This document shows positions 2,264 to 60,988 of a stretch of DNA of 60,988 nucleotides, piece by piece; position 1 is the first letter of the stretch, and the number at the start of each line of letters is the position of its first letter. Below the pieces are notes generated by a model. That model was not told the DNA's origin and searched no databases. It saw only the letters and a program-made list of their open reading frames with translations. The position numbers and the translations under genes were made by a program. Source of the DNA: a virus (Duplodnaviria; Caudoviricetes); IMG/VR virus record IMGVR_UViG_3300031753_000298, positions 1 to 60,988 of that record. One strand, given 5' to 3'.

Positions 2264-2569
2264 ATGAAGCGGTCGAGACTCATTGGCTTGTTCGCGGGCG
2301 CCCTACTCGTCTCCTGTGTCTGTGCAGAAGGCCGCCAAGCGGCTCCTCCCCCGCCCTCCCCTCCTCCTCTTCAACACGTCGAGTACATCCTGGTCCCGAC
2401 CTGCGTGGACTCGATCGTGGTGAACACGAAGAAGTGGCATTGCGTGGTAGACAACCCTGACAACCCGACCCAGGTCGTGTGCGACCCGGACTCGATGACG
2501 GTCCTGTTCAAGAAGACGATTAAGATTCGGGATTGCGTTGAGGTCCATATCGTGATGGAGAAGAAATGA
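2264..2569 (+). CDS. Hypothetical exported protein
   Basis: Signal-like N-terminus MKRSRLIGLFAGALLVSC, Pro-rich linker, Cys-containing domain. Confidence 0.6.
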   Translation: MKRSRLIGLFAGALLVSCVCAEGRQAAPPPPSPPPLQHVEYILVPTCVDSIVVNTKKWHCVVDNPDNPTQVVCDPDSMTVLFKKTIKIRDCVEVHIVMEKK

Positions 2570-2769
2570 AGATCACCAAAGTGTCGAGCACTCGGGTGCA
2601 GTTGCTGCTGACTTTACAGCCAGAGAATGAGGCTGAAATTGCGTTGCTCACGCTCGCTTCAGGAGCGTACGGAAGTATTGCAGCACCAATCGAGACCATC
2701 ACTGACAGAGACAACCCCGAAAAAGAAGGAACGTCCGAGTCAGTCATTACGTTGGCGTTACGGAATTAA
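2566..2769 (+). CDS. Hypothetical protein
   Basis: ATGA overlap with the previous gene; GGAG Shine-Dalgarno. Confidence 0.55.
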   Translation: MKITKVSSTRVQLLLTLQPENEAEIALLTLASGAYGSIAAPIETITDRDNPEKEGTSESVITLALRN

Positions 2770-2771
2770 AT

Positions 2772-3083
2772 ATGACCTCCCTCACCGGCCCAAACTGGGG
2801 AACCGATAAACGCCTCTGGCCCGGCCTGATAGCCCGCATCCAGAATTGGGGTAGCTTCCTCTCGAACTACCCGCCGCCCTCACTCACGCTAGAGTTCCTG
2901 GGCTTCCGCCTGAACATTCCGTGGACGCCGGTGTATGTACGTCCGGACTGGAAAGTTCCGTACTGGTCCCCGCGCTACCTCTGCATCCGTTGGCACCTGT
3001 TCCGTTACGACGCGTACGCGCGCGAGTACATCTTCATCAGCGCGATGGCGAAGCGGGTTCCGATCTTTGAGGTGATGCCGTGA
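2772..3083 (+). CDS. Hypothetical protein
   Basis: Tightly packed in the same operon; Trp/Pro-rich. Confidence 0.55.
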   Translation: MTSLTGPNWGTDKRLWPGLIARIQNWGSFLSNYPPPSLTLEFLGFRLNIPWTPVYVRPDWKVPYWSPRYLCIRWHLFRYDAYAREYIFISAMAKRVPIFEVMP

Positions 3084-3836: not shown

Positions 3837-4289
3837 ATGAAAACATTCTCTCTACTCTTCATCCTCCTGTGCAGCCTGCCGGCTCTCGCGCAGACTGAGC
3901 CAACTCCGCCCGCGTTTATTTATGTGTGTCCTCCGCCATCAAAGAAGCCTTGCGTCACTTACTCCGTCTCTGTGCAGAGCACTCCAATCATGAATGGAGA
4001 GCCTCTGCTTGGCCAAACAAATCGGAACAACAGAACAATAAAACTTTACCGTCACCCCGACAACTTCATCTTCGCCGCGACTCTCCTGCATGAGTGCATG
4101 CACGCCGTGCTCTATGAGGGCCACATGATTCATCAGGATGGATGGGATAGCGAGCGGATGTACGCGCACGACTTCATCTACAGGATCGAGCCTGGTCTGA
4201 CCCGATTGATTCAGGATAATCCCGCGCTCATCTCGTTTATAAATGAGGCCCGGAACAAGAGTGGGGCGAGGGCGGACGACCGTGAGTAG
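3837..4289 (+). CDS. Secreted zincin-type metallopeptidase-like protein
   Basis: Signal peptide MKTFSLLFILLCSLPALAQ and HExxH motif (TLLHECMHA). Confidence 0.65.
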   Translation: MKTFSLLFILLCSLPALAQTEPTPPAFIYVCPPPSKKPCVTYSVSVQSTPIMNGEPLLGQTNRNNRTIKLYRHPDNFIFAATLLHECMHAVLYEGHMIHQDGWDSERMYAHDFIYRIEPGLTRLIQDNPALISFINEARNKSGARADDRE

Positions 4290-4791
4290 CAATCCAAAAT
4301 TACGCATTGGTCCTTTGACTATAAGGCAGGCAAATGCACTCATTACAGCTAAACATCGTCATCACAAGTCTGTCACAGGACATCGTTTTAGTCTTGGTTG
4401 TTTTGTTGCTGAGACTCTTGTAGGTGCTGCAGTAACTGGCCGCCCGGTAGCACGAAACGTAGATCCGTATCAAGTTGCAGAAGTGACCCGTTTAGTATCA
4501 GACGGCACTCCTCATGTTTGCTCTATGCTCTATGCAGCTAGTGCTAGGGCAGCGCAAGCGATGGGTTTTCACTGGATACAAACGTACATTTTAGAAAGTG
4601 AAACAGGAAAGTCTTTGGAGGCTGCAGGTTGGTTACCGATTTACTCGACAGGATGGAACTGTGGTTGCAAACAAGGGCAGAAATGCGCAGGCTGTCTAAC
4701 ATCCGGAGGCGATTGGAATCGAAAAACCAGAAAAGACCGTCGCACGGATCAGCCAATGTGCCAGAAACAAAGATGGGGCAAAAGATTGTAA
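4282..4791 (+). CDS. XF1762-family / Mom-like GNAT-fold protein (putative DNA modification)
   Basis: ANALI..HRHH...GHRFSLG, GRPVAR, EVTRL.SDG...CSMLY.A..RAA.AMG...TYILESE.G.SL.AAGW match this family; GTG start at 4282. Confidence 0.7.
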   Translation: MSSNPKLRIGPLTIRQANALITAKHRHHKSVTGHRFSLGCFVAETLVGAAVTGRPVARNVDPYQVAEVTRLVSDGTPHVCSMLYAASARAAQAMGFHWIQTYILESETGKSLEAAGWLPIYSTGWNCGCKQGQKCAGCLTSGGDWNRKTRKDRRTDQPMCQKQRWGKRL

Positions 4792-4816
4792 TTGCAGGTG
4801 ATGTTATTCTCTCCTC

Positions 4817-7355: not shown

Positions 7356-7907
7356 ATGAAACAAACTCATTGCCTCCGTGGTCACTTACGTTCTCCAGAT
7401 AATCTTACTTCTGTAGGCCAATGCAAAATTTGCCATACAATACAGGGAAGACAACGGCATTTTGCGAAACGTGATCAGATCCTTGCAGCCGCACGTAAGC
7501 GATATTGGGACAATCCTCAAAAGCACCGGGAAGCCTCGCGACAATGGGCTAAGGATAATCCGAACAAAGCGACAGCCATTCATCGGACATGGCGCTGGTC
7601 GAACCGTTCACTGTGTCTTTTGTCAGCGACTCGTAGACGCGCTCGAAATACAAATACTCCTTTCAATTTAACTCTGGAGGACATTTTTATTCCAGATGTG
7701 TGCCCGATTCTTGGAATTCCTCTTTTCTTTACTCCTCGGAAAGTAACGAATAACACGCCATCTTTGGATAAGATTATTCCGAACCTTGGCTACGTCAAAG
7801 GCAACGTTGCCGTAATCAGCATGAAAGCGAATGGTCTCAAAAACAACGCGAGTCTGAAAGAGTTCAAATCCTTAATTCAATATTTGGAGACTCACGGTGT
7901 TCAGTAA
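7356..7907 (+). CDS. Free-standing HNH-type homing endonuclease
   Basis: HCLRGH...CKIC N-terminus; CPILGIPL...PSLDKIIPNLGYVKGNVAVISMKAN core; preceded by extended -10 TGGTATAAT. Confidence 0.8.
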   Translation: MKQTHCLRGHLRSPDNLTSVGQCKICHTIQGRQRHFAKRDQILAAARKRYWDNPQKHREASRQWAKDNPNKATAIHRTWRWSNRSLCLLSATRRRARNTNTPFNLTLEDIFIPDVCPILGIPLFFTPRKVTNNTPSLDKIIPNLGYVKGNVAVISMKANGLKNNASLKEFKSLIQYLETHGVQ

Positions 7908-10425
7908 TGCTCCAATCAATACACATGAACTCAAGGCCAAAACCGGCCAACTCCTGCCTTCGCAGCGTGAGTATGTGTTCTCGCCCGAGCGTTTCAGCAT
8001 GCTTGCGGGAGGGTTCGCTTCCGGCAAGACCCACGCAATGATTTTGAAGGGTCTCGTGTTGTCTGCTGTGATCCCTGGCAACGTCGGGATGGTCCTGCGT
8101 TACCACTACACAGATTTGGAAGAGTCTACGATGCGGACTTTCTTCGATATCTGCCCGCCGTCGTGGATCAAAGCGTTCAATAAGAAAGCACGCACGGTAC
8201 TACTGCGTAACGGGAGCCTGATTTTTTTTCGGCACTTACATGATGCCAAAGCTCTGACCAAAACTAGGCGTTTGGGCGCGAACCTCGGCTGGTTTGCGAT
8301 CGACCAAGCGGAAGAGATTCAGCTTGAACACTGGCAAGCGATGATGTCACGACTCAGGCTGCCGCGCGCGCCCAAGAAGTTTGGATTCGGAACGATGAAT
8401 CCCGCAGGTCACGACTGGCTGTGGGAGACCTTCTTTTCTCAATTCAAACCGTGGCCGCGCGACAAAGAGAAGAAGGCTTTGCCTATCGATGGAAAGTACT
8501 ACCAGGCGTTCCGCGGGCCGGACACGCTCGGGATCGCGGTGAACTCAGAAGAAAACAGAGAGAGTGCAGGCGGGTTCATCGAAGATTCATATTTCGACAG
8601 TAACCTGAAACAGTGGGGACGTGAGTGGGTCGAGCGTTACGTGTACTGCTCGTTTGACGATTTTACTGGCAAAATTTACAGGGAGTTTGAGGGAGGGTTG
8701 CGTAATGAAGACTATCGCTCCGTACATATTGTTGATCCTTTCCCGATTCCTAAACATTGGCCCCTCACGGTGGGAATTGACGTTGGCGGCGATAGTCCGT
8801 GGGCTGTTGTACCTGAATACACTGACGATGCCGGTAATCAAATTATCGTTCGAGGGTTTTCCAAACGAACCGGACGAACCGGAGAAGTAGCGCAGTGGAT
8901 CAAGAACAACCTTCCCTGGAACGAATCGCGCACCCAGTACGTGATGGACTGGGAGAACAAAGTCGCAATGGTCGAGCTGGGGCAAGATCACGGGATCCAC
9001 GCCCAGATCGCGCGCAAAGAGGTGATCCCCGGTATCCTTCAGACCAACGCATATTTTCATGTGCAGAAACATCGTGCGCTCCCTGAGTGGTATCAAGACA
9101 CGCAACCGAACGCTCGTTATCAAAAGTTCCGCAACGCCGGCTCGCCGCGCACGTTCGTGTTCAATACGTTCACGGAGTTTATTCAGGAGCACGACGCGTA
9201 TAAATGGGATCCCAACAAAGCAGACAAGCCTCTGAAGACTGCGACCGCTCGCTACGACACGTGTTTCGCGCAGGGAACAAATATTTTGATGGGAGACGGT
9301 ACGCAAAAACGAATAGAACGTATCTGTGCTGGGGATTTTGTCATGACACGCTTTGGCTCAAAACGTGTCCTTAGTACTGGGATGACTAATTCTTATGCTG
9401 AAGTGTTTCGGGCCGAGTTTTCTAATGGCACAGAAATCGTTGCTACTGCTGAGCATCCCTTTTGGTCAGTTAATGCCGGTCTTTTGACATTGAATACTCT
9501 TCGATATTCTGATATACTTCAAGAATGGAACCCAGAACAGTTATCTACGACGGCATTGAGTGGTACATCAACAAAAGGAATCCGTACTATCGAGCCTTCG
9601 TCAACGGCAAGACGATTAAACTCCATGTGTATATCTGGACGAAACACAATGGCGCAGTTCCTGCAGGATATGTGGTTCATCACAAAGATGAGAACAAACG
9701 AAATTGGGAATTGGGTAACTTGGAATGTATCCCGTCTGGGATCCATGCAAAGGAACGTCATCCCTCTAATCTCGATCTCGCACGGAGCGCCGCCGCTAGC
9801 TGGCACAAATCTGTGGTTGGTCGGAGATGGCATTCTTTGCACGGGAAGCGGGTATGGAAACAAAGAGTGCTCAAACATCGGGTTTGTAGACACTGCAAAA
9901 AACAGTTTTCCACCAAACACAACCGTAAAGAATTCTGTTCCAACAACTGCAAATCAGCATGGCGGCGAGTCGCTGGTTTGGACAACATTAAAAGAAGGTG
10001 CGTCGTCTGCAGCAAGTCGATTGTGGTCAACCGTTACTCAAAAATCCGCTCGTGCAAAGGTTCCTGTTCGGCTCGTCTCACTGTCGAAGGCCGTTCCAAG
10101 ACCCGTTTATAATCTCGCTGTTGAAGATGTTCATGAATATTTCGCAAACGGACTTCTTGTTCGTAATTGCGACGCGCACCGTTATGTCTGCATGACACGG
10201 CCGATCCCCGGTAAATGGGAGGAGCCTGAACGCGATTGGGACTCCATCGCGAAGAAGGATCCGTTGAGCTACCGCGCAATGCGCGATATGGACAAACGGA
10301 TCGCCGAGCGAGAGTGGCGGAGGAAGGGCGGGGCCGCGTTGAGGGAAGCGGACATGGAAGATGCGCCGGATGTGGATCTGCGAGGCGATGAAAAGTTTGA
10401 CTGGGCGGGACAAGGGGAAGTCTAA
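7897..10425 (+). CDS. terL: Terminase large subunit, intein-containing
   Basis: Walker A GGFASGKT, Walker B-like AIDQAEE, motif III TMNP, RNase H-like nuclease GIDVGG; C-terminal YDT|CDAHRY is reconstituted after intein removal. Confidence 0.92.
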   Translation: MFSNAPINTHELKAKTGQLLPSQREYVFSPERFSMLAGGFASGKTHAMILKGLVLSAVIPGNVGMVLRYHYTDLEESTMRTFFDICPPSWIKAFNKKARTVLLRNGSLIFFRHLHDAKALTKTRRLGANLGWFAIDQAEEIQLEHWQAMMSRLRLPRAPKKFGFGTMNPAGHDWLWETFFSQFKPWPRDKEKKALPIDGKYYQAFRGPDTLGIAVNSEENRESAGGFIEDSYFDSNLKQWGREWVERYVYCSFDDFTGKIYREFEGGLRNEDYRSVHIVDPFPIPKHWPLTVGIDVGGDSPWAVVPEYTDDAGNQIIVRGFSKRTGRTGEVAQWIKNNLPWNESRTQYVMDWENKVAMVELGQDHGIHAQIARKEVIPGILQTNAYFHVQKHRALPEWYQDTQPNARYQKFRNAGSPRTFVFNTFTEFIQEHDAYKWDPNKADKPLKTATARYDTCFAQGTNILMGDGTQKRIERICAGDFVMTRFGSKRVLSTGMTNSYAEVFRAEFSNGTEIVATAEHPFWSVNAGLLTLNTLRYSDILQEWNPEQLSTTALSGTSTKGIRTIEPSSTARRLNSMCISGRNTMAQFLQDMWFITKMRTNEIGNWVTWNVSRLGSMQRNVIPLISISHGAPPLAGTNLWLVGDGILCTGSGYGNKECSNIGFVDTAKNSFPPNTTVKNSVPTTANQHGGESLVWTTLKEGASSAASRLWSTVTQKSARAKVPVRLVSLSKAVPRPVYNLAVEDVHEYFANGLLVRNCDAHRYVCMTRPIPGKWEEPERDWDSIAKKDPLSYRAMRDMDKRIAEREWRRKGGAALREADMEDAPDVDLRGDEKFDWAGQGEV
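9490..9518 (+). promoter_or_regulatory. Internal promoter inside the intein, leaderless start for the nested HNH
   Basis: TTGAAT (9490-9495), 17 bp spacer, TATACT (9513-9518) with extended -10 TG; ATG 7 nt downstream at 9525. Confidence 0.6.
9525..10112 (+). CDS. HNH homing endonuclease nested in an alternative frame within the intein
   Basis: LHVYIW...GYVVHHKDENKRNWELGNLEC (HNH_3-like), then CRHC..F.....FCSNNC and CVVC....CKGSC Zn-ribbon repeats. Confidence 0.85.
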   Translation: MEPRTVIYDGIEWYINKRNPYYRAFVNGKTIKLHVYIWTKHNGAVPAGYVVHHKDENKRNWELGNLECIPSGIHAKERHPSNLDLARSAAASWHKSVVGRRWHSLHGKRVWKQRVLKHRVCRHCKKQFSTKHNRKEFCSNNCKSAWRRVAGLDNIKRRCVVCSKSIVVNRYSKIRSCKGSCSARLTVEGRSKTRL

Positions 10426-17025: not shown

Positions 17026-18333
17026 ATGGCGCAGGACACAACTGTTTCGGGTTTTGATGCGGCGTTGAAAGACGTTTACGCAGGCCCGATCCGAAATCAG
17101 CTCAACGAAAAGACGCGGTTGCTTGATCTGTTCACCAAGGGTGACATCGAGCAGTATGAATGGGAAGGCCGTCAGGTCGTCCTGTCTCTCCGCAAAGCGC
17201 GTAACTACGGCGTGAAGGCCACTGCTGAAGGTGGAGCGTTGCCCGTCGCCGGTAAGCAAGCGTACGCAAACCTGAAAATTCCAATGAGGTTCATCCAGGG
17301 CCGCATCGAATTGACCGCACAGGTCATGAAGGCGTCCCGGAGCGACAAAGGCAGCTTTGCTCGCGCGATGGACTCAGAACAAAAGGGCTTGGTTGATGAC
17401 CTGGCCCGGCAGCGCAACCGGATGCTGAATTATTTCGGCCAAGGTACGCTGGCTACCACTACTACGACTGGCGCGGTTGCGGCCGGTGCGAACATTGCGC
17501 TCGCGAACCCTGGTGGAGTAAGCGGGACCACGAACGCGACCCGGTTCATCAAGGTCGGGATGCAGGTCACGATCACTGATGTGACCGGTGTCACGGTGAA
17601 GGTGAACGGCAACGTCACGTCCGTGGCGGAACCGAACATCCAGCTCGACGCCGCTACCGTCAACAACCTCGCGTCTGGCGACCTCGTGTCGCTCGGCTCG
17701 AACTCATTGGCGACTGGTGCGTCCTCGGATTCTTCGTTCGGTTTGGAACCGATGGGAATTCTGGGCATCGTGGATTCGACCACGTACGTGTCCAGCATCT
17801 TCTCGTTGGATCGTTCGCAGGCTGTCAACGCGTTCTTCCGTTCGAATGTGTTGTCGAGCGTCGGGACCATCAGCCCCGACATTCTGCAGCGCGGAACGGA
17901 TAACGCCGAGGAAGTCAGCGGCGAAGTGATCGATCAGTATCTGTGTCACGTTTCGGTTCGGCGTGAGTTGATCAAGCTGACTGAAGCGGATCGTCGATAC
18001 ATGGGCAGCTCTCAGCCCAAGAACTTCGACGGCGGCACAGAGGCCGGCGCGTTCAAGTCCGAGTACTCCTTCAACGGAACTCCGGTGAAGGTGGACAAGG
18101 ATTTCGCGTACGGAACCCTGATCGGCGCGAACAAGAGTCACCTGTTCTGGATCCCAGAGGTCGAGGGAGAATGGGCGGATGACGACGGCACGGTGCTGTT
18201 CCGTGTTCAAAACAAAGATAACTATGAAGCAAGATACCGCGTTTACGAGAATTTTTTCTCAGACAAGGGCGACAGTCACGTAAGGTTCGACGGAATTACC
18301 GCGACAGTCGTTAGCGGCGTCTTTGCCGATTAG
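17026..18333 (+). CDS. Major capsid protein
   Basis: FDAALKDVY..PIRNQLNE, EGGALP, DLARQRNRML...GQG, PMGILGIVD, FNGTPVKVDKD; 435 aa; strong GAGGAG Shine-Dalgarno. Confidence 0.88.
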   Translation: MAQDTTVSGFDAALKDVYAGPIRNQLNEKTRLLDLFTKGDIEQYEWEGRQVVLSLRKARNYGVKATAEGGALPVAGKQAYANLKIPMRFIQGRIELTAQVMKASRSDKGSFARAMDSEQKGLVDDLARQRNRMLNYFGQGTLATTTTTGAVAAGANIALANPGGVSGTTNATRFIKVGMQVTITDVTGVTVKVNGNVTSVAEPNIQLDAATVNNLASGDLVSLGSNSLATGASSDSSFGLEPMGILGIVDSTTYVSSIFSLDRSQAVNAFFRSNVLSSVGTISPDILQRGTDNAEEVSGEVIDQYLCHVSVRRELIKLTEADRRYMGSSQPKNFDGGTEAGAFKSEYSFNGTPVKVDKDFAYGTLIGANKSHLFWIPEVEGEWADDDGTVLFRVQNKDNYEARYRVYENFFSDKGDSHVRFDGITATVVSGVFAD

Positions 18334-18449: not shown

Positions 18450-19049
18450 ATGGAAACCAAACGCTGCTGGAAATGTACTCACACAAAGCCTCTGACCGAA
18501 TTTCACAAAAACCGCACGACATCTGATGGATATGAACAAGTCTGCAAACCGTGCAAAGCGAATGAATCAGCCCTTCGTCGGCAAAGACGGGCATCTGCTG
18601 GGCTTTGTCATTGCGGGCGTGAACGCAAAATAGGGTACAACACTTGCTCTATTTGTGTGGAGAAAAGTCTTCTTTGGGGCCGAAGTAATCCAAACAAAAA
18701 AGAAGATGGGATAGCTTGGCGGAAATCTGTTCGTGCCCGTATTTTCGCTCATTATGGTAAACAGTGCGCCTGCTGCGGTTTTTCATGTCAGGATTTTCTA
18801 ACAATCAATCACATCAATGGAGGAGGCAATCAGCATCGCAAAGAAGTCGGTGGAGGAACTATTTTCTATTCCTGGCTTATTCGACACAACTTCCCTTCCG
18901 GATTCAACACGCTCTGCTACAACTGCAACTGTGCCGCAGGACACAACGGAGGAATCTGCCCACACAAAACGAGCTGCGCGGATTCTGCTAAACTACCCGC
19001 AGGAAACGCCTATGCTATCCTTCCTGAAATCGTTGCTGAGCGAGCCTGA
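18450..19049 (+). CDS. Free-standing HNH-like endonuclease
   Basis: KRCWKC..KPL.EF...CKPC N-terminus; YGKQCACCG...LTINHINGGG..HR...LCYNCN. Confidence 0.78.
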   Translation: METKRCWKCTHTKPLTEFHKNRTTSDGYEQVCKPCKANESALRRQRRASAGLCHCGRERKIGYNTCSICVEKSLLWGRSNPNKKEDGIAWRKSVRARIFAHYGKQCACCGFSCQDFLTINHINGGGNQHRKEVGGGTIFYSWLIRHNFPSGFNTLCYNCNCAAGHNGGICPHKTSCADSAKLPAGNAYAILPEIVAERA

Positions 19050-37540: not shown

Positions 37541-38220
37541 GGTTGTGGTCCTAAAGGTGCCTCTAACTTCGTGCTCCTTGCCTTCACTTCGGAAATCTGG
37601 TGCTGTCCGGTCGGCAAAAATTCAACCGCCCACACAGATCCGGTGCTCTCCGGGCCGGGCATTCCGGTCTCCTTCGACGGAGTTTCTTTGATCGGCGGCT
37701 CGACGTTCTCCCCGAGCATGGTCCGGAGAGGGTAGAGATTACGCGAGTGCGTAACGAGCACGAGAGCCTGGGTCGGATTCTGCTCGACGTATTGCCGTGC
37801 GGCCTGCACAGGTTTGGAATAGCGACCGATGAAGTCTGAGTAGGATTCACCTTTGGGCACCTTCATGTCCGGGTTGTCTTGGAAATGCTTGAGCGCCGCG
37901 AGGGAGTCATCGTTGATCGGCATCCCAGTGAACTCGCCATACTGCCAGGGCCGGAGCGTCGGCGTAGTGGTCACGGCCGCGCCGGTCTTCTGCGCGATAG
38001 CGTGCGCGGTTTGCTGAGTTCGGGTGAGGTCGCCGGCGTAGATGTGGGCGATCGGGAACTGCGCGACCTTATCGCCAGCCTCGTTCGCTTGCTTGATTCC
38101 GGTCGCATCGAGTTTGGGATCAAGCCAGCCGCGGAACTCCTTCTGAGCGCCCTTGTTCATTTCGGTTTGTCCGTGACGAACTAGAAAAATTGTAGGATTA
38201 GCCAAAACAGAAGTCTTCAT
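37537..38220 (-). CDS. Histidine phosphatase (phosphoglycerate mutase superfamily)
   Basis: LVRHGQT..N, D..L...G..QA, DLTRT.QTA, P.GES, LVTH. Confidence 0.88.
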   Translation of the reverse strand: MKTSVLANPTIFLVRHGQTEMNKGAQKEFRGWLDPKLDATGIKQANEAGDKVAQFPIAHIYAGDLTRTQQTAHAIAQKTGAAVTTTPTLRPWQYGEFTGMPINDDSLAALKHFQDNPDMKVPKGESYSDFIGRYSKPVQAARQYVEQNPTQALVLVTHSRNLYPLRTMLGENVEPPIKETPSKETGMPGPESTGSVWAVEFLPTGQHQISEVKARSTKLEAPLGPQP

Positions 38221-39967: not shown

Positions 39968-40291
39968 TCACCAGAGATTATCGAACGCCCCCTGGCGAAC
40001 AAGTTTGCGCATCCGTCGCTTGAATCGAGACCCGTGAAAATGCTCCTGCGGTGTCTTGGGAAATTCTACGTGACACATTTCATGAAGCAGCGTGGTGCAT
40101 GCAATGCGTTCAAGAAATTGCAGTTCGTGTCGCAGGACGATGTACTGCGGAACCCAATTTGTAATGCGTGTTTCCGCAACATGATTAGGAGCAGTCTTCC
40201 CAAAATAAACCCGTAGGCGTTTCGGTAGCCGATTGCCGAAGTACGTTTTGTTGTAGGACTTATAGTAATCGCGTAGCTCAGCGCTCGTCAT
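39968..40291 (-). CDS. SprT-like zinc metalloprotease
   Basis: YN..YF.N.LP, TLLHEMCH, HG..F. Confidence 0.8.
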   Translation of the reverse strand: MTSAELRDYYKSYNKTYFGNRLPKRLRVYFGKTAPNHVAETRITNWVPQYIVLRHELQFLERIACTTLLHEMCHVEFPKTPQEHFHGSRFKRRMRKLVRQGAFDNLW

Positions 40292-41160
40292 ATCTCACCC
40301 TCAAACGGATCTTTCCACCGAGTCCGATGGATGGAAACCGTCGAGCGGGCATTCTGCATAGTGCGGAGAACGTAGTCACGGCGCCGGAGCTTCGCGCGAG
40401 GTTTCGCCCTCTTCAAGAACTCCGCTATATTCTGCTCCACCGTGGCGTCGGCGCCCATGTCTCGAACGACGGCGCAAGCCAGGGAGAATTCCGCACCGCT
40501 CGCGGACTCGTCGGAGTCGCCGGGCGAGACGGGCGGGATATAGGAGGAGCGGATTTCGGCGTCCGTCAACTCTCCAAAATAGATCGTGAAGAACTCCGTC
40601 AAATCGCGAGTCTCAATCTGTGCAGACAAAGCCCCGGACGGCGTGTCTGTAATCCACGGTTCTTGCAGAGCACTGATTACTTGACCAGTCACCGTGAAGT
40701 ACCGCCCGCTCACGTACGCCTCAAGAGCCGGGTGCTTGTCTGGAGGATGCTGCACAGACAGATTGGTCATCTTTATTTTTCGTCCGCGGACCGGCATCGT
40801 GGCTTTGCACCAGATGTGGAAGCCTCGTCCGCTCGGCGAGAGTTCGGTGTAACTGTTCACGTGAGCGATAATCTGCCATGCCCAATGCTCAGTTTCTCCT
40901 GTCTTCGGATCTCTACACACATCCAGATCGAGCGCGCAGTAAGGCGGCGCGATCACGCATCCTGGTCCGTGGAAGTACTTGCCTCCTTTCAGTACCTGTT
41001 CGAACGTGCTCCATGTGGACGGGTCGGTGCTGCTCGCGAGTTCCAACGACTTCACATCAAAAAGAACTTTGGTGAATCTGCCGTCCCTCTCCTCATTACG
41101 ATACCCGACCCAGCGAGGGAGTTTGCGCAACTCCTCGGGAAATTTTGAGAAGTCACTCAT
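40288..41160 (-). CDS. Primase-polymerase (NrS-1-like AEP) without fused helicase
   Basis: PEEL..LPRWV, ASSTDPSTW.TF, ALDLD, YTELSPSG.G.HIW, E.Y..GRYFTVTG, D.S.S..EF. Confidence 0.85.
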   Translation of the reverse strand: MSDFSKFPEELRKLPRWVGYRNEERDGRFTKVLFDVKSLELASSTDPSTWSTFEQVLKGGKYFHGPGCVIAPPYCALDLDVCRDPKTGETEHWAWQIIAHVNSYTELSPSGRGFHIWCKATMPVRGRKIKMTNLSVQHPPDKHPALEAYVSGRYFTVTGQVISALQEPWITDTPSGALSAQIETRDLTEFFTIYFGELTDAEIRSSYIPPVSPGDSDESASGAEFSLACAVVRDMGADATVEQNIAEFLKRAKPRAKLRRRDYVLRTMQNARSTVSIHRTRWKDPFEGEI

Positions 41161-44284: not shown

Positions 44285-44821
44285 TTATGGGGCAAACAAG
44301 AGAACGCCCCAAACAAGAAGCGCGATATTCCTTTTGACCAAAACAGACAACTCATGAAGGCTGGCGTCTCCTTTTAGTTTATTCGCACGCCAACTGATGA
44401 CCCAAACGTTTCCGGGAACATATCCCAACTCTGGAATGATTCGGTCAAGAGATGGTCCTTGAGGAGATTGTTTGCCTGTATTTTTCGTAAATACGAATGG
44501 TGTTCCGAACACAGGACACCGATCAGGAATCACAATATCAGCAAGCGTTAAGGAGTAAGGAACTTTTCTTTCCTTCGCATTTTTCCGCGCGTTTGAAAGC
44601 ATAATCAGTTCTGGATGTGATTCCCTCCATTTTAGGCAGACCATTTTGCTTCTCTCCGGATTGAGTACACGCCATTCTTTTGATTTTTCTTTTGCCTCAG
44701 CACGATGCCGAGATCGCCAAACAGCATGACAGGTTTTACATGCTCCAGTGGATTCTTCGACAGTGGACAAGGTTCGGGGATGTCCCCATTTACAAAATGA
44801 TTTGCGCGGTATTCTACTCAT
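44285..44821 (-). CDS. Free-standing HNH-type homing endonuclease
   Basis: FCKWGH...CKTC; IPDRCPVFG.P...PSLDRIIPELGYVPGNVWVISWRAN; same family as 7356-7907. Confidence 0.8.
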   Translation of the reverse strand: MSRIPRKSFCKWGHPRTLSTVEESTGACKTCHAVWRSRHRAEAKEKSKEWRVLNPERSKMVCLKWRESHPELIMLSNARKNAKERKVPYSLTLADIVIPDRCPVFGTPFVFTKNTGKQSPQGPSLDRIIPELGYVPGNVWVISWRANKLKGDASLHELSVLVKRNIALLVWGVLLFAP

Positions 44822-46367
44822 CGATGTAGTACAACTCCCTACGAGCACGTGTGGTGGCGACGTAGACAAGATTCGTCTCCTGCTCCCGCTGCGTGTCTAA
44901 CTTCATCGCCCAAGACGGAAAGAACAGATTCTGATTCAGGATGAACACTCGGTCCCACTCGCCGCCTTTCGCCTTGTGGACCGTGGACAGGATCACTTTG
45001 TCCTGTGCAGAACCCTCTCCATCCTGGAACATCCCCTCGATATCTCTCCGCAACTCCGCCAACGTGCGCGGTTCCTCGTTCAGAAACACCCTCAGAGTCT
45101 GGACCCGATCGCTCAATCGGTCCGCCTCATCCGGCTTCCTTTGCGCGTAGAGCTTCCCGATCTCGTTGCTCGACCACACACTCAGCTCATCCTTTATCGC
45201 CTGCACAGACGCGGATTCGGCCCAGTTGGATTTCTCGACCCGTTTCTGTATGCGTGTGAGCAACGCGAGGATCCCCGCCCCAATATCGCGCCCGATCACT
45301 TTGTTCGAAACCCGCGCCCGGATCAACGCGAACGCGCGCGCGATCAGCGGGGCGTTATTTCTGCACAGGATCACGTCGCCGGGCCGGAACGTCGAATCGT
45401 CCCAGTTGACTCCGAGCTGCGTAACCGATCCATCCGGGGCGTTCGGCGCCGGCTCAATATGGCTCACGTACATCCGCGCTCTCTCCACAACCTTGCGTGG
45501 GCACCGATAGCTCACAGTGAGCGGAAGCTCGATCGCTGCGAATTCCTGCTGAAGCTCCGCAATTGAGTTCGTCCCGGCGCCGCGGAAGCCGTAGATTGCC
45601 TGTCGAGGATCTCCAACCGCGATCAGCCGGCCGTCCGGAGCGAGCGATCGCCGAATGATGGCTTTCTGCATCTCGTTGATATCCTGAGCCTCATCTACGA
45701 AGACTAAATCGTATTTGCGGAACGGAGCGTTGAAGATGAGCGGCATATATATCTGATCGTTGAAATCAAATTTAGCCTGTGCAGCATCCTCGACGAGAGC
45801 GAGACGGATGGAGATCGAGAGAACTTCACGTGCGAACCGGATGAGTTCTTTCGAATCGACCCACTCGATTTCATAACGATCCATCAAGCCGAGCCAGTTC
45901 GTATCGTAATCACCAACGAGACCTTTTGCGTCTTCACCAACCTGCCGTGTCTCCGGCACAATCCCCGCGTTCTGCGCCATGCTCACGAGCTTCTTGGTCG
46001 CGCTCATGAAATCTTTGTTCCGGTTCGGCGTGCGGTCCCGGATGATGTTCGAGAGTTTGTACGCGTCCGGCGCGAGCGTGCGGCCCGTGAACTTCGCCCA
46101 GGCCCGCGACCCGAGGGCGTTCAGGGTCATCGCGGAGACGCTGGACGGGAGCCTCTTCTTGAGTTCATCCGCGATCCGCCTGTTGAACGCGATGAAGAGA
46201 GAGTCGGTCTCCATCGGGAGCCGATGTGCGGCCTCAACTATTGTGCTTGTCTTGCCCGAGCCTGCCACGGCCACGACGGTTGCTGATCCGGCTCCGTTCT
46301 GCACAAAGGCGAATATGGCTTCTTGCTGAGGGGACCACGCGAGTTTTGGAACGACGAGAGTGCTCAA
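44814..46367 (-). CDS. UvrD/Rep-like SF1 helicase
   Basis: AVAGSGKT, VDEAQD, VGDPRQAIYGFRGA, L..SYRCP, STVHKAKG.E, YVATTRAR. Confidence 0.92.
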   Translation of the reverse strand: MSTLVVPKLAWSPQQEAIFAFVQNGAGSATVVAVAGSGKTSTIVEAAHRLPMETDSLFIAFNRRIADELKKRLPSSVSAMTLNALGSRAWAKFTGRTLAPDAYKLSNIIRDRTPNRNKDFMSATKKLVSMAQNAGIVPETRQVGEDAKGLVGDYDTNWLGLMDRYEIEWVDSKELIRFAREVLSISIRLALVEDAAQAKFDFNDQIYMPLIFNAPFRKYDLVFVDEAQDINEMQKAIIRRSLAPDGRLIAVGDPRQAIYGFRGAGTNSIAELQQEFAAIELPLTVSYRCPRKVVERARMYVSHIEPAPNAPDGSVTQLGVNWDDSTFRPGDVILCRNNAPLIARAFALIRARVSNKVIGRDIGAGILALLTRIQKRVEKSNWAESASVQAIKDELSVWSSNEIGKLYAQRKPDEADRLSDRVQTLRVFLNEEPRTLAELRRDIEGMFQDGEGSAQDKVILSTVHKAKGGEWDRVFILNQNLFFPSWAMKLDTQREQETNLVYVATTRARRELYYIDE

Positions 46368-47339: not shown

Positions 47340-47630
47340 TTAATTGATCGGATATGCTCCGAGCTGCTCCAGCCGCCCGATCGCCTCTCCGTAACGGAAG
47401 AACACAACGCCGAACGAGATCAGCCGCATCAGATCCTGCACAGTCTCAATAGGAAACCCGGCCGTCATCCCTGCGCCCACGATCCGTTCCTTGAACGCCG
47501 GGAGCTTGATAATCGCGCCGATCTCCTGCGAGTTCGGAGCGTCCGGGCCGTGGCCTTCTTGGATCGCGCGCTCAGACATCTCGCTGATGACCGCTTCGAG
47601 CATCTCGTTTGTGAATGAGATCGCGCTCAC
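47340..47630 (-). CDS. Hypothetical protein
   Basis: Coupled ORF in the recombination operon. Confidence 0.5.
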   Translation of the reverse strand: MSAISFTNEMLEAVISEMSERAIQEGHGPDAPNSQEIGAIIKLPAFKERIVGAGMTAGFPIETVQDLMRLISFGVVFFRYGEAIGRLEQLGAYPIN

Positions 47631-54396: not shown

Positions 54397-54624
54397 TCAC
54401 AACATTCTCTCCTGTGCAGGCAGATCGTTCACGAACCGCATGAGGTTGTACATTTTGATGATTTGCCGGACCGTTAACTTGCGCCCGGTCGGAAGATCAA
54501 TCTTTGTGTCCCACACGCCCCGATCGGCGAGCTGCAGCACCATCTTGATGAGTTGCGCGCTCGTGTCGCACGTGCGGACCTGGCGCTCGGCTTGTTCGAT
54601 TTCGGAGGTAAGGTAGCGGCTCAC
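54397..54624 (-). CDS. Hypothetical protein
   Basis: AAGGAG Shine-Dalgarno, GTG start. Confidence 0.5.
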   Translation of the reverse strand: MSRYLTSEIEQAERQVRTCDTSAQLIKMVLQLADRGVWDTKIDLPTGRKLTVRQIIKMYNLMRFVNDLPAQERML

Positions 54625-54685
54625 TTGTACTCCTTGAGTGTTCGATCTTCTGTGCAGAAGAGAACGTTTCCGTTAGATCGCGCCG

Positions 54686-54922
54686 CTATATCCCCATCCT
54701 TCTTCTTCGCTCGCCCTGCTCGTTCTCCCACTCTTTCTGGGCGCGTTGAAGGAACGGAGAGGTCAGGACGGCCCGATACAGACTTCTGCAAGCGTGACAA
54801 TACTGGAGAGCGGTCCGGGCGACCATGCTTAGGGTCACGCACTCTTCGCACCCGCACAGAAGATCCATTGGGGCGCGGCAACTCTTGCACTCGCGATCGC
54901 CGGGAAGAAGGGGCGGTTTCAT
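54686..54922 (-). CDS. Small zinc-binding protein
   Basis: CKSC, CGCEEC, CHAC; GGAGGAG Shine-Dalgarno. Confidence 0.5.
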   Translation of the reverse strand: MKPPLLPGDRECKSCRAPMDLLCGCEECVTLSMVARTALQYCHACRSLYRAVLTSPFLQRAQKEWENEQGERRRRMGI

Positions 54923-55368
54923 GAGAGGATTTTACTCCTCCCACCGCACGCGAATATTCCTCATCCGTGATCGGCCGGCGCCAGGGTTTCGCGGATTCGT
55001 TTATTGAAGAGTTGTGACTATTTTGGCCCATGTTGATTCCACCAATCTCTCACGCACGCCCGCAACTCTCCGTAAAACACTCCGAAGAGAATGATCATAA
55101 TTGCGAAGCGCCAGTTCATATACGCCGCAACAGCCCCCGAAGCGCCCGGAACGGCCACGCTATTGTCCAGAGCATCAGGCCCATTCCGTCCGCGCGAGAC
55201 GCGACGAAATAGTCCGCAGTGCTCGGATGCGGGATGTACAAGGTGCCAATCCGTCGATACGGCGGTACCAAGGGCTTACGTTTGCGCTTACAAGTCTTCA
55301 TTTGTCCTGTGCAGAGGGGAGGGCCGAACTTTATTCTCTCAACATGCGCATTCTCGCTCAATTTAGGC

Positions 55369-55396
55369 TTGCGTGTCAAGAAAAATCGCGTATAAT
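55369..55396 (+). promoter_or_regulatory. Sigma70-type promoter of the RHS gene
   Basis: TTGCGT, 16 bp spacer, TATAAT. Confidence 0.6.
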
Positions 55397-55413
55397 ATGT
55401 CAAATTGACACGT
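55394..55413 (-). promoter_or_regulatory. Quasi-palindromic operator, copy 5
   Basis: AATATGTCAAATTGACACGT, overlapping the -10/+1 of the RHS promoter. Confidence 0.75.
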
Positions 55414-55484
55414 TCGAATTACACGTGCTGGGCCGCCCAGCATTGAATCTCAAAGTGAGACACACAAACCAGAGGAATTTATCT

Positions 55485-58400: not shown

Positions 58401-60215
58401 CTAGACGTGATGGGGAACGTTAAGACAGTGACCGCGAGTGCGGGAGTCAATCCTGTCTCGGCGGTTACGTACAGCAACTACAACTATGTTACGAGCGCGA
58501 CGTTCGGGTCTTCGGATGTTGCGACATTCAACTACGATGTTCACGGCCAGATGACGAAGTATCAAGAGGCCATCAACGGAACGATCGTGTCGGGTGTTCC
58601 GGCGTGGAACGCAAACGGGTCGCTCAAGAAACTCACAATTGTTGACCCGCTTAACTCCGGGGATGCTCAAACGTGCAACTACACACTAGAAGACTTAGCT
58701 CGTCTCTCGAAGGTGGATTGCGGAACAAAATGGGGCCAGACGTTTACGTATGACCCTTTTGGAAATATTGCGAAGCAAGTCATCTCCGGCGACGCGGGAC
58801 AGAACTTCCAGGCGACTTACAACACCAACAACCGAATTCATGATATAGGTGGACTTGTCCCGACCTACGACGCTAATGGAAACTTGTTGACAGATACATT
58901 CCACACCTACACATGGAACATCAACGGACGCCCGGCTACCGTGGATACCGCAACGCTGACTTACGATGCGTTCGATCACGTAATCGAGAAGACTGACGGC
59001 GGCGTGGATAACGAGTATGTCTACCTCGGCGGGCAGAAACTCGCCGTGATGGATGGGCAGGTTCAGAAGAACGCTTACGTTCCTTTACCGGGCGGAACAC
59101 AGGCCGTGTACGTCGCCGGAACTCTCTCGTTCTACCAAGTCCCTGATTGGCAAGGGAGCTACCGGATCGCTTCGACGCAGGGCCGAGCGCTCAAGTTTAG
59201 CCAAGCGTTCGCTCCGTTCGGGGAGTCTTATGCGTTGAGTGGGACCGGGAGCCGCCAGAGTTTCGCGGGCAACAATAGTGACACCGAAACGGACATGGCC
59301 GACGCCGGGATGCGCGAGGAACACACCACGCAGGGTCGGTGGATTTCTCCCGATCCGGCAGGGCTGGGCGCGGTGAGTTTGGCGGATCCGCAGAGTTGGA
59401 ACCGATACGCTTACGTGAGCAACAATCCGTTGATTAGTGTCGATCCTTCAGGACTAGAAGACCCCAATTTTGAAGAAAATCTTTATTTCAACAGCGGGGA
59501 ACATTTAGGCCAAGGCAATAGCTCCTTCTCCTCTTTGTGTTTTTGCACAAGCGGAGACAGCGAAAACACCGGAACTTTTTTAGATTTCGTTAACACTAGT
59601 CTCATGGGTGCCAACGGAAGCGGCAGCGACTCTCTTTTAGGGAACATGGAAGGAGTCTCAACGGAATCACAGCCGCTAGGCGGCGCGGGCGGTTCGTGGG
59701 ATGGGCCGCAGATGCTTAATTTCAGTGATCTGTGGAGTACAAGCGCAGGACAAAGTATAGAGTCAGCGTTTGCCCGTAACCCGGCTCACCCCGCCGTAGT
59801 GGGAGGTCCGGGGCTTTCCTCCTTCGAGATGAGTTCGATGTGGTTAACTGTGGGTAGCGCCCCAAGTTTCTTCAACATAAACAACACAGAAGCAGTATTC
59901 CATCCATCAGAGGCTCCCGCATTCCAACAGGAGGGGACAGCATTCAGGCAGTATTTAGTATCAAGGCCGGCGACCCGTAGAACAGGCGGACAGGCTTTGA
60001 TTTCTGTGTATCAGGAAGCTCTCGACGGCAGTGGCATGTGGCGCACTTCTAATCATTGGGGCACTATGACATCAACCAAATGGATGCTAGGCTCACCTGA
60101 GTATATGGAATCAATAGGCGGGTTGCGAGTAGAACCAGAGTTCTGGCTTTTCAACGAGCCAGTAACGGGATGGGTACGCTTTGCGGACATGACTCCCTAT
60201 GTGCCCGTGCCCTAG
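55485..60215 (+). CDS. Secreted RHS/YD-repeat protein with unknown C-terminal (toxin) domain
   Basis: AGAGGA Shine-Dalgarno; signal peptide MKTLKILGLMLICLIGAQFVSAQ; many YDxxGR repeats; core GRWISPDPAG...WNRYAYVSNNPLISVDPSGL; 252-aa tail. Confidence 0.92.
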   Translation: MKTLKILGLMLICLIGAQFVSAQANTGFPQHGTFSNAGGGIDTIDLSSLNVHLSLPLRSLSAGDMPAVAKLVVDNSAIPISSPFHYQWNPGLQINPNTIAYLGNNSPSGWKCVNGPFTVSGVVDSNNTFHSTPPLTVACGNSGTTTPGTDGWSLEGTLSTTGVWTTLTGTDPAGNVYSLFPGTSVTDPHGNKIQGYFDVNFCLQARSCGPPNGVTYSGSLTDAANATVLTSSSSIASLTPTVTYPDVNGASQPITLTYGLYNEDAYFGCAGETDYWASGFANYLLTRVAFPDGSFYSFGYEPTFNHSTFTTGRIASVTLPTGGIIRYDYSTYGTHGQNCNLQQTAGFTKTTPDGVWKFDNSTGTNAAQHNVTVTAPDGTYTGYNFDYEFETLRLTKTAVGGTTLSTVTTCYNNNFTGCATYSGLTNGQAITQKNVYTDIGASAGAAQVQTNYDSYGRLTDVRNYDFGQGANNYATHTALVYGSYSGGVCNALTGILNRVCSTTVFDSSSHILSYGLGVFNASGDQTQHQQLVSGNTYLISSASYNANGTLHTTTDVNGTITNYTQGDCGGFFPTGIAAGGVSRFFAWDCNGEVIKAVNDGNGNPATVITHADPLWRPDSVTDPTGALTSFSYTPTSSTSSMLFGLNSQNTSVVTLDSMGRPFDTQVKNGSTYKTFTSAYDVNGRPSSTTQPCSVALGASCPTVETTQTYDGLNRPLVTTTAAGGTITNTYAGRDVLTTLGPASTGENVKSKQYEYDGLGRLLSVCEISSMTGSGPCGQDSGGTGFRTSYTYDPLGRLLTVTQGAQTRTYGPYDGLGRMSQEINPENGTTTYTYDTAGCSGTSNGDLVRQADAVGNVTCYHYDNLHRVTSVTYSGPYLANTPSKTFVYDAATVNGQTMQNVNGRLAEAYTGARATDEGFSYTARGELADYYQSSPTSGGFYHTVQSYWPNGTLASISGVGLPIINYGDMDGSGLDVMGNVKTVTASAGVNPVSAVTYSNYNYVTSATFGSSDVATFNYDVHGQMTKYQEAINGTIVSGVPAWNANGSLKKLTIVDPLNSGDAQTCNYTLEDLARLSKVDCGTKWGQTFTYDPFGNIAKQVISGDAGQNFQATYNTNNRIHDIGGLVPTYDANGNLLTDTFHTYTWNINGRPATVDTATLTYDAFDHVIEKTDGGVDNEYVYLGGQKLAVMDGQVQKNAYVPLPGGTQAVYVAGTLSFYQVPDWQGSYRIASTQGRALKFSQAFAPFGESYALSGTGSRQSFAGNNSDTETDMADAGMREEHTTQGRWISPDPAGLGAVSLADPQSWNRYAYVSNNPLISVDPSGLEDPNFEENLYFNSGEHLGQGNSSFSSLCFCTSGDSENTGTFLDFVNTSLMGANGSGSDSLLGNMEGVSTESQPLGGAGGSWDGPQMLNFSDLWSTSAGQSIESAFARNPAHPAVVGGPGLSSFEMSSMWLTVGSAPSFFNINNTEAVFHPSEAPAFQQEGTAFRQYLVSRPATRRTGGQALISVYQEALDGSGMWRTSNHWGTMTSTKWMLGSPEYMESIGGLRVEPEFWLFNEPVTGWVRFADMTPYVPVP

Positions 60216-60445
60216 ATCGCAAGCTCCCAAGGACCGCACTCAATCGTGTCGTCGCTGGGGTCGCATGACTTGCCGTTGGTGTCGAAGCGCATACGTTCGT
60301 GAGCGTTCCATGTGCCATCGTTTTGCATCACGCCAGTTTGCACGTCCACGCCCGACGGCGTGACCTTGACCACTTTACCCTTGATGGAATAAACCCCGCT
60401 GACCACGTGAACGTCCTGACCAATCACCAATGTCTTCGTGTCCAT
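60212..60445 (-). CDS. Hypothetical protein
   Basis: GGGAG Shine-Dalgarno; convergent with the RHS gene, stop codons overlap. Confidence 0.55.
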   Translation of the reverse strand: MDTKTLVIGQDVHVVSGVYSIKGKVVKVTPSGVDVQTGVMQNDGTWNAHERMRFDTNGKSCDPSDDTIECGPWELAI

Positions 60446-60463
60446 AAGTCTCCCTCTTCTCCC

Positions 60464-60988
60464 TCAACTCAAAAATTTCTTGCTCAGATCTGAATCACAC
60501 TCTAACCGCGAATACATCATCGTGGCCTGGAGCGAACGGTGCCCCAACATCGCCTGCACCTCATTGATCGTCCCGAGCCGCGCCCACTTTCGTCCGCACG
60601 CGTGCCGGAATGCGTGGGGGTGACACTTGCGCAGGTCCACGTTCGCGCGCATCCCGGCATGCTGGATTTGCTGCCACAGATTCACGCGCGAGAACGGAAA
60701 GAGTCGGGCGTTCAGGAGCTTTGTTCTGCACAGAGCTTCGAGCTCGTCGCGCACTTGTGGCACGAGATACTGCCGGGTGAGCCGGCCGTTCTTCAGCCGC
60801 TGGATGACCAGCTCGCCATTCTTGATATTCTGCGGAGTCAGCATGAGCAGTTCACTTGCGCGTAAGCCGTAATGATACAGGATGCGGATGGGGAGTTTCC
60901 AGTACTCCGGCCGAACCTTCGCGATGAGCGCCTGGGCCTCAGCATCCGTGATGTAGATCCAATCGTGGGTCGGATCTTTGTATCTCAT
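60464..60988 (-). CDS. Short tyrosine recombinase (catalytic domain; FimB/FimE-like)
   Basis: YGLRASEL, RLKNG, HPHAFRHACG, LGH.S...T..Y. The ATG is the last codon in the window, so the gene may extend further. Confidence 0.88.
   Translation of the reverse strand: MRYKDPTHDWIYITDAEAQALIAKVRPEYWKLPIRILYHYGLRASELLMLTPQNIKNGELVIQRLKNGRLTRQYLVPQVRDELEALCRTKLLNARLFPFSRVNLWQQIQHAGMRANVDLRKCHPHAFRHACGRKWARLGTINEVQAMLGHRSLQATMMYSRLECDSDLSKKFLS

Follow-up and report, generated by a model that had tools for sequence, protein, structure and literature searches.

What maintains a single asymmetric octamer, CTGTGCAG (reverse complement CTGCACAG), at dozens of dispersed copies in the genome of a temperate soil phage? 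This question is raised by IMGVR_UViG_3300031753_000298, an IMG/VR provirus record that is 88% complete and whose whole length of 60,988 nt was analyzed (hereafter, the window). A tyrosine integrase at the record's right edge marks the phage as temperate. Megablast found no cultured phage close to it, its capsid protein being at most 41% identical. The gene set used here comprises 79 genes (93% coding), obtained by a greedy choice of open reading frames (ORFs) that was corrected by homology.

Abundance of the octamer and its carriers

The octamer is present in 70 exact copies, 35 on each strand, spanning 2320..60733 at a density of 1,148 per Mb (1.15/kb):

Octamer CTGTGCAG, + strand, starting at 2320, 3867, 3970, 5863, 6234, 10880, 13695, 14643, 15865, 19905, 20599, 22485, 25235, 28857, 30410, 30845, 31613, 32225, 35350, 36623, 36755, 37053, 37321, 39794, 40618, 41436, 42484, 45003, 45777, 49457, 50771, 54412, 54650, 55307, 58309
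Octamer CTGTGCAG, - strand (CTGCACAG on the + strand), starting at 5648, 5794, 10706, 11684, 12275, 14673, 14922, 15280, 16498, 20144, 23283, 24027, 24755, 28035, 28527, 29142, 29921, 31769, 32729, 32897, 35584, 37804, 39841, 40750, 44149, 45201, 45361, 47436, 48518, 49568, 50266, 50681, 53269, 58074, 60726

The initial annotation of this DNA had counted about 70 copies, about 35 per orientation, and all 28 coordinates that it listed are among those above. Dinucleotide-preserving shuffles (n=100) contain a mean of 1.99 octamers (sd 1.38, max 7), which agrees with the two copies or so that had been expected by chance and places the excess at ~35-fold, where ~30-fold had been proposed. Markov models of orders 1-4 predict 1.8, 2.1, 2.7, and 7.6 copies, respectively, while orders 5-6 (35 and 66) are uninformative because they are built from the motif's own sub-words. 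Loss of the excess under a codon-preserving null had been named beforehand as the outcome that would refute it. When synonymous codons are shuffled within genes and the protein is kept (n=200), a mean of 10.1 octamers is found (range 5-16), and when codon order is shuffled (n=200) the mean is 7.2 (range 5-13), ~5 of the octamers counted being sites outside the shuffled genes. With a maximum of 16 against 70, the enrichment survives.

The octamer is the commonest 8-mer of the window, and the next independent one is 3.5-fold rarer (20 copies). Read backwards as a control, it occurs 0+1 times, and its 24 one-off variants occur 0-10 times each (mean 2.4). A comparison with the other CTGNNCAG words, as had been suggested, leaves the octamer standing alone, as these have 0-6 copies each, the background level; the true palindromes CTGCGCAG and CTGTACAG have 1 and 0 copies. 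Position -1 is T in 33 copies, C in 24, A in 11, and G in 2, and position +8 is A in 39, G in 14, C in 12, and T in 5; the Y..R flanks described as usual are thus seen before 57/70 and after 53/70 copies, and contribute little to the motif. Neither CTGTGCAG nor CTGCACAG was found as a word in any paper of the collection searched.

Searches with the portal protein led to 80 viral loci, and the only one rich in the octamer is G002 (60,892 nt, 90% complete), which has 30+35 copies against a mean of 2.07 and a maximum of 5 in a first-order Markov simulation. The two phages are syntenic, and G002 ranks throughout as the nearest relative of the window (amino acid identities: portal 71%, capsid 83%, terminase 71%, polymerase 61%). 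The whole relatives G001, G003, G004, and G005 contain 4, 4, 1, and 2 octamers, and 78 further portal-related loci contain 0-2 each in the locus stretch examined. As a trait, the octamer is restricted to the window and G002, which form one small clade of temperate soil phages, and is not general in the family.

Reading frame, turnover, and arrangement of the sites

Sixty-five of the 70 octamers lie in genes, and the other five are intergenic or at gene boundaries. As the initial annotation had described, most genic copies (50/65) read xCT-GTG-CAG or xCT-GCA-CAG (phase 1), the only frame in which no Cys or His codon arises. Phases 0 and 2 hold 7 and 8 copies, against ~2 expected in total; both the 15 octamers in these frames and the 5 non-coding ones are above expectation. 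Tripeptides of the form [SPTA][VA]Q are ~2 times commoner than amino acid composition predicts, and 50 of the 76 are spelled with the octamer, where codon usage predicts 2.4; this accounts for the many SVQ, PVQ, SAQ, and PAQ tripeptides that had been noticed. On the sense strand, the phase 1 copies read CTGCACAG 27 times and CTGTGCAG 23 times. Orientation is therefore independent of transcription, and together with the 35/35 division by strand this upholds the description of the octamer as unpolarised. Furthermore, both octamers in the gene for the primase-polymerase (PrimPol) discussed below align to different amino acids in G002, which means that the proteins have changed to carry the octamer. 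These data support maintenance of the octamer at the level of DNA, not as a peptide or a codon bias. Selection on peptide or RNA was rejected because codon choice is fixed, because copies occur in the other frames and between genes, and because the two orientations are equal in the mRNA sense.

Through protein alignments, 33 window sites could be mapped onto G002, which has the identical 8-mer at 6 of them, a one-off variant at 4, and unrelated sequence at 23; in the reverse direction 6/28 sites are identical, and on G001 0/23. Aligned 8-mers are identical by background in 4.2% of cases, so that shared octamers are in ~4-fold excess (P=0.002). Where a site is not shared, the 8-mer is 49% identical to G002 and its flanks 54-56%, compared to 60% overall. 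This argues that sites arise stepwise in variable stretches and not by patch replacement, and patch conversion was rejected because the 8-mer has diverged little more than the sequence on either side. Most sites arose separately in the window and G002, with excess retention of the shared ones.

Rapid turnover of sites would also suit neutral molecular drive, in which a sequence-specific bias in repair or mutation (very-short-patch type) turns near-cognate words into octamers that serve no function. Deamination of the palindrome CTGCGCAG yields either one orientation or the other, CTGCGCAG stands at 2 of the 4 aligned one-off sites in G002, and TGCGCA is low in G002 (6 observed vs 22 expected). 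However, a pool of CTGCGCAG from which octamers could decay is lacking (8 copies in the motif-poor G001), TGTGCA outside the motif is not raised, and one-off variants are at background, neither depleted nor raised. In addition, sites have been built from unrelated sequence and through amino acid changes, the shared sites are conserved 4-fold above background, and six-frame searches of the window and G002 detected no DNA methyltransferase of three families (Pfam PF01555, PF00145, PF02086). Neutral drive is accordingly judged improbable.

Octamer counts for single features along the genome are as follows (GC3, GC content at third codon positions):

292..1158, - strand: DUF932 gene; 0 octamers; 87% amino acid identity to the motif-poor G005
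4243..4791, + strand: Mom-like DNA-modification gene (PHROG 1384, E 1e-29); GC3 0.37; 0 octamers; window only
7356..7907, + strand: HNH/EndoVII-like endonuclease gene; low GC3 (0.41); 0 octamers
7897..10425, + strand: large terminase interrupted by an intein; 0 octamers in 2.5 kb
17026..18333, + strand: major capsid protein gene; 0 octamers; 81-83% amino acid identity to G001 and G002
18450..19049, + strand: HNH endonuclease gene; GC3 0.42; 0 octamers
44285..44869, - strand: HNH/EndoVII-like endonuclease gene; GC3 0.38; 0 octamers
55101-60215, + strand: RHS-repeat protein, 1,704 amino acids; 3 octamers
60464..60988, - strand: tyrosine integrase at the record edge; 1 octamer

The absence of copies from the HNH genes, the intein and terminase, and the major capsid protein gene is as first reported, although in each gene singly it is non-significant; the DUF932, Mom-like, three HNH, and intein segments pooled have 0 octamers in 4,062 nt vs 4.66 expected (P=0.009). 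For the RHS gene, two copies had been given and three are found. In stretches with a homologue in all five relatives, the octamer occurs at 0.44/kb, compared to 1.34/kb where at least one relative has a homologue and 0.65/kb in stretches without any. These densities and the pooled segments agree with the proposed scarcity in mobile or highly constrained DNA. Three large tail genes (27713-33348) contain 12 octamers.

Taken in both orientations together, the gaps between sites are random-like in the window (coefficient of variation, CV, 1.04) and slightly regular in G002 (0.79), and the cumulative orientation skew stays within +/-3 along the window. In the two phages, neighboring sites switch orientation in 82/133 cases vs 67.3 expected (P=0.007), and the gaps within single orientations (CVs 0.78, 0.81, 0.74, and 0.70) are more even than random (Fisher P=0.005); these two tests are not independent. 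The pattern is suggestive of an octamer that is needed on each strand, at about one per 1.7-2 kb. A spacing of ~132-135 nt seen in five octamer pairs was set aside as chance, the segments being unrelated in sequence.

Host signature or phage trait

Hyperabundant octamers are known from cellular chromosomes, and a signal of similar strength is found here in a 61-kb phage and its sister. HIP1 (GCGATCGC) of cyanobacteria is an octamer over-represented 15-300 times at 300-2,700 per Mb, which is found within genes in every frame, shows more conservation than background and a somewhat even spacing, and has a function debated for decades (PMC5861425; PMC4390886). The octamer described here falls within these ranges (35-fold, 1,148 per Mb), is above expectation in all frames, and is conserved at 6/33 sites vs 4.2%. 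In contrast to HIP1, which is a perfect palindrome, it has an asymmetric center (TG/CA), its palindromic variants having 1 and 0 copies; and whereas HIP1 is a chromosome-wide host trait tied to orphan methyltransferases, the octamer has so far been seen only in phages, and neither the window nor G002 encodes a methyltransferase of the three families searched. DNA uptake sequences (Neisseria DUS, Pasteurellaceae USS) are asymmetric 9-12-mers that occur at ~1/kb in both orientations and in preferred frames, and shape peptides. They are found in the chromosomes of competent hosts, often as inverted pairs at terminators, whereas only 5/70 octamers here are intergenic. Chi, too, is an octamer without symmetry, which DNA-processing machinery reads on a single strand; it is enriched in the host and over-represented in Chi-dependent phages, where it is concentrated in the region from the origin to cos (PMC3784561). 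The octamer of the window differs from Chi in its 35-fold excess, its density of 1.15/kb, its even spread (gap CV 1.04), its lack of polarity, and its background level across 728 kb of DNA from the candidate host phylum. Statistically it is like HIP1, uptake sequences, and Chi, but it belongs to none of these classes.

Such likeness could nevertheless mean that the host genus carries or demands the octamer, as a HIP1-, uptake-, or Chi-like word, and that its prophages acquired it by amelioration or under the same selection; we regard this as possible but doubtful. An integrated provirus with an integrase shares the repair and selection regime of its host, sister phages usually share a host clade, and the recently acquired genes lack the octamer, as amelioration predicts. 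Lambdoid phages over-represent the Chi of their host, though only 2-5 times, at 0.2/kb and regionally concentrated (PMC3784561). Database names of the portal and RHS homologues point to Acidobacteriota (Terriglobia), relatives of the phage were binned with metagenome-assembled genomes (MAGs) of this group, and no survey of iterated words in that phylum was found in the literature searched. The portal protein of the window lies on a parent contig of 105,540 nt, which is longer than the window, so some 44 kb of host flank exists beside the provirus.

On the other hand, 78 metagenome loci around RHS homologues (728,141 nt, GC 52-61%), which are probably Terriglobia and may miss the true host, contain 19 octamers, or 0.026/kb, a background level, and none of the 32 among them that reach at least 8 kb has any dispersed iterated 8-mer. 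A Patescibacteria-labelled MAG (G006), found by a portal-alignment search of genome contigs in which its sole match was a 1.7-kb phage contig, is also at background (27 octamers in 1.4 Mb). A host signature does not predict the alternating orientation of the sites. Moreover, the window and G002 avoid different 6-bp palindromes and have therefore lived with different restriction repertoires. The initial annotation had proposed a site maintained by the phage. The clade-bound enrichment and the 728 kb of probable host-phylum DNA at background fit this proposal, although the driver may instead be the particular host. Phages sharing the tail protein at 29458-31440, a proxy for the same host, were also sought, and no relatives were found.

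The avoided palindromes of the window (observed/expected) are CTCGAG 0/23, GTCGAC 0/14, CAGCTG 0/14, AAGCTT 0/13, GAGCTC 2/24, GTGCAC 1/23, CCCGGG 0/10, GGGCCC 0/11, and GACGTC 0/9. Those of G002 are GTGCAC 0/18, ACCGGT 1/12, CCATGG 0/9, and TGCGCA 6/22, and only GTGCAC and CCATGG are common to both.

Other phage loci were screened for dispersed words by collapsing sites less than 300 bp apart and applying an order-3 Markov expectation. Dispersed iterated 8-mers were found in 8/48 portal-family loci, in 5/72 and 3/5 PrimPol loci, and in 0/32 bacterial-type loci; the window and G002 score 24-47 and all other loci at most 21. The comparison tilts towards iterated octamers being phage-intrinsic in general, with a bacterial sample that is small. 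Several clades of the portal family each have a different iterated word, and a host origin would then call for many hosts that each have a word of their own. The presence of separate dispersed intragenic words in several soil-phage clades that are unrelated, and of none in the 32 bacterial-type loci, suggests a phenomenon wider than the window.

The words themselves are varied. CCCTGTAGTAA is the dispersed word of a distant clade of ~41-kb phages with portals ~25% identical to that of the window (G017, comprising L380-L382, and G018; also L046, L049, L054, L056, L057, L059, L076, and L077). CCTGTAGTA has 20 copies in G017 (7+13) and 14 in G018, mostly genic and in both orientations, with a reversed control of 0. 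In G011 (L230-L232; 41,909 nt, with terminal repeats), ACCGGCAG has 29 copies, TTCATCAA 28, CAATCAGG 26, and CTGCTGAA 25, and ACCGGCAG is dispersed in both orientations with flanks that are not conserved. L018 (12,229 nt) has 7 dispersed copies of AGGGGGACCT. L078 and L079 have CCGGTGGCTCC 9 times, clustered in L079 within ~3.4 kb, probably in a repeat-containing gene.

The same octamer was also sought elsewhere. Scans of viral contigs for plain motif pairs gave at least 118 stretches, of which 80 were examined, and a scan for T/A-flanked pairs gave 62 stretches, mostly tandem repeats, with 0/5 records checked enriched overall; these scans are insensitive, as G002 itself was not re-found. G008, an unrelated 18-kb podovirus fragment (50% complete), has 14 copies, all in phase 1 by hand count and with different flanks, and its 80 relatives have the octamer at 0.06/kb. 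If one phage contig in ten has an iterated word, then among 2.9 million contigs a handful would share any octamer by chance, so G008 is uninformative.

Candidate readers in the phage

A small genome with few clade-private genes is a more tractable place than a chromosome in which to find the reader of such an octamer. Three features of the window set it and G002 apart:

40288..41160, - strand: AEP primase-polymerase (PrimPol), 290 amino acids from the ATG at 41160, with a longer TTG frame to 41316; octamers at 40618 and 40750
54621..55031, - strand: small Cys-rich (CxxC...CxC...CHxC) protein region in two overlapping frames (54621-55031, 54686-54922); homologous only to G002 L095:2650-3006
47340..47630, - strand: ORF of 96 amino acids; weak match only in G002, 29-32% over 50-89 amino acids; no family match

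The PrimPol is the only annotated gene that is present in both motif-rich phages and in 0/4 motif-poor relatives (G001, G003, G004, and G005; tblastn/tblastx). A hidden Markov model of the two PrimPols matches 2/10 records, only those two, and G003 has a different Prim-Pol, PF09250. The window protein matches PHROG 1829/13901 DNA primase (E 2e-32) and the PDB 'Primase' chains 7rr3_A, 6k9a_A, and 6a9w_A (E about 2e-19), which we take to be the primase of phage NrS-1. By hhalign, its columns 5-168 (catalytic domain) align at 100% probability to homologues bearing the Pfam 'NrS-1 polymerase HBD domain'. The protein contains an SPS loop (ELSPSGRGFHIW), an SPSG loop being seen in the alignment, and is thus predicted to have a catalytic AEP domain of NrS-1 type, with the SPS loop and no zinc finger; a role for this loop has been described for NrS-1-type PrimPol (PMC8718748). 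NrS-1 PrimPol recognizes 5'-TTTGGTTA-3' (8 nt) and 5'-GTG(A/G)-3' through its helix-bundle domain, with R249, K251, and Y261 as key residues, whereas ORF904 (pRN1) reads GTG, and hPrimPol, BcMCM, and TthPrimPol read CCTG (PMC8718748). The octamer contains both CTG and GTG, and 24/70 copies read CCTGTG. In the window PrimPol, R255-x-K257...Y263 is invariant with G002 and by eye resembles the three NrS-1 residues.

We therefore tentatively propose, as a possibility that falls well short of a probable one, that the octamer is the template priming site of this clade-private PrimPol. The octamer would be a DNA-level recognition word private to the clade of the window and G002, kept by selection on synonymous sites and tolerant protein positions at about one per 1.7 kb per strand. 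The PrimPol at 40288-41160 may read it on the template, and priming there could serve lagging-strand synthesis or replication restart. As the PrimPol reads single-stranded DNA, each strand would need its own octamers, and their per-strand spacing is roughly what might be expected of Okazaki fragments; a long recognition site would confine priming to phage DNA. The likeness to known PrimPol sites is that a homologous enzyme is private to the motif-rich clade and that the characterized NrS-1 homologue reads an 8-nt single-strand site. We know of no genome-wide enrichment of a primase site reported so far. If true, the link would to our knowledge be the first instance of a genome remodeled to supply a primase that has a long site.

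An extension, offered as speculation and rather unlikely to hold, is that of a private replication address, in which a PrimPol with an unusually long, 8-nt specificity has co-evolved with the genome, and the words of other clades (CCTGTAGTA, TGTGGWCA, and others) are further such addresses. If so, self-restricted DNA transactions would be a recurrent phage strategy. In favor of the priming site itself, all five records with the nearest GRGFHIW-type PrimPols (G022-G026; 28-34% identity) have 5, 19, 18, 18, and 9 copies of TGTGGWCA, ~8-fold enriched, against 1, 1, 3, 0, and 1 for the reversed control. These records (L234-L237, L239) encode a PrimPol-helicase fusion; G024 prefers TGTGGTCA, and G022, G023, G025, and G026 prefer TGTGGACA.

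A number of observations weigh against PrimPol as the reader. TGTGGWCA is strongly strand-biased in these five records (e.g., 3+15), unlike the unpolarised octamer, and four of them (G022, G023, G025, and G026) are close relatives that count as about one case, just as the window and G002 are sisters in which the co-occurrence of PrimPol and octamer is one evolutionary event. The Cys-rich protein and the 96-amino acid ORF show the same distribution as the PrimPol. Most PrimPol-bearing phages sampled have no iterated word: a dispersed enriched 8-mer is found in only 5/72 further PrimPol-bearing loci (at least 8 kb), none containing GTG, and GTG/CAC is in the top 8-mer of 14/72, about chance (roughly 19% by hand reckoning). 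The next-closest PrimPol phage, L383 (39% identity), has no dispersed 8-mer. Conversely, iterated words occur in phages with no detectable PrimPol homologue, namely G017 (94% complete), G011 (100% complete), and G008 (50% fragment), and no homologue of the window PrimPol was detected in the G017/G018 clade as a whole. The window PrimPol has no PF22763 match at E up to 1 that would identify a helix-bundle domain, and hhalign did not align its C-terminal part. Primases generally use sites of 3-4 nt. In the NrS-1 genome, the 8-nt site is much rarer than GTG (PMC8718748). A general rule linking PrimPol to octamers was rejected on the 5/72 loci, the absence of GTG, and L383, and the link is a specific conjecture for the clade of the window and G002, not a family rule.

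The octamers might instead be sites for another DNA-binding protein of the phage, a stoperator-type repressor or the Cys-rich protein, that silences, compacts, or self-marks the prophage. The stoperators of Cluster A mycobacteriophages are asymmetric 13-bp sites to which a single phage protein binds; they occur at ~0.6/kb genome-wide, oriented with transcription and specific to the immunity group. As with these, dozens of asymmetric sites are dispersed over the genome of a temperate phage, iterated words seem commoner in phage than in bacterial loci, and the Cys-rich protein is common only to the window and G002. In contrast to stoperators, however, the octamer has 8 bp, lies in genes in 65/70 cases, and is oriented independently of transcription (27 vs 23). 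No genes shared between the early/immunity regions of the two phages were detected by BLAST, yet the word is identical, and no helix-turn-helix repressor was identified in protein family scans of the window. Finally, an 8-bp site gives little specificity, and a binder of double-stranded DNA does not predict even per-strand spacing. This explanation is considered rather unlikely. The Cys-rich protein has no Pfam or PHROG match, and is a possible DNA-binding candidate; it may be the 'C2H2' protein of the initial annotation. Its conserved N-terminal part and its CxxC...CHxC part are in different frames in the window and G002 alike, which may reflect programmed frameshifting, genes that overlap, or a defect common to both phages.

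The initial annotation had envisaged a protein that either binds or modifies the site. Clade-private candidates for binding were found, as described above, whereas modification fares poorly. That the octamer is a DNA-modification target or a restriction decoy would draw on the Mom-like gene and the MazZ-like/MazG/deoxyribosyltransferase-like/histidine phosphatase cluster of the window, and on the avoidance by both phages of GTGCAC (1 and 0 copies), one base from the GTGCAG of the octamer. However, the Mom-like gene is absent from G002 and so cannot explain a shared trait, and the three methyltransferase families are missing. Modification targets are not normally enriched, and a decoy would be of no obvious use to phages that have already purged GTGCAC. 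We hold this to be very improbable.

The nucleotide-metabolism genes themselves form a run at 36184-38220 (- strand) that encodes a MazZ-like dATP/dGTP diphosphohydrolase, a nucleoside 2-deoxyribosyltransferase-like protein, MazG, and a histidine phosphatase. With the Mom-like gene, this run is a hint of base modification or of nucleotides that are non-canonical; among the window proteins scanned, none resembling PurZ was seen. Other replication and repair genes encode a family-A DNA polymerase, a UvrD-like helicase, a PD-(D/E)XK nuclease, and a UDG-like protein. Packaging and structural genes include the intein-split large terminase, a P22-like portal, and the major capsid protein, and the mobile or accessory genes include the three HNH/EndoVII-like endonucleases, the Mom-like gene, and the RHS protein. 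Even the best homologues of the latter share only 45% identity with it, and the bacterial contigs that encode them carry the names Terriglobales, Terriglobia, or Candidatus Acidiferrum. The DUF932 protein shares 87% identity with its G005 copy, though the G005 portal is only 50% identical to that of the window, which indicates a recent exchange of this gene between distant family members. Intergenic DNA at ~50,800, immediately to the right of the octamer at 50771, contains a (CT)n/(AG)n microsatellite. In the whole window, 12 occurrences of the 12-mer AGAGAGAGAGAG and its complement were counted, one such run being visible in the intergenic stretch.

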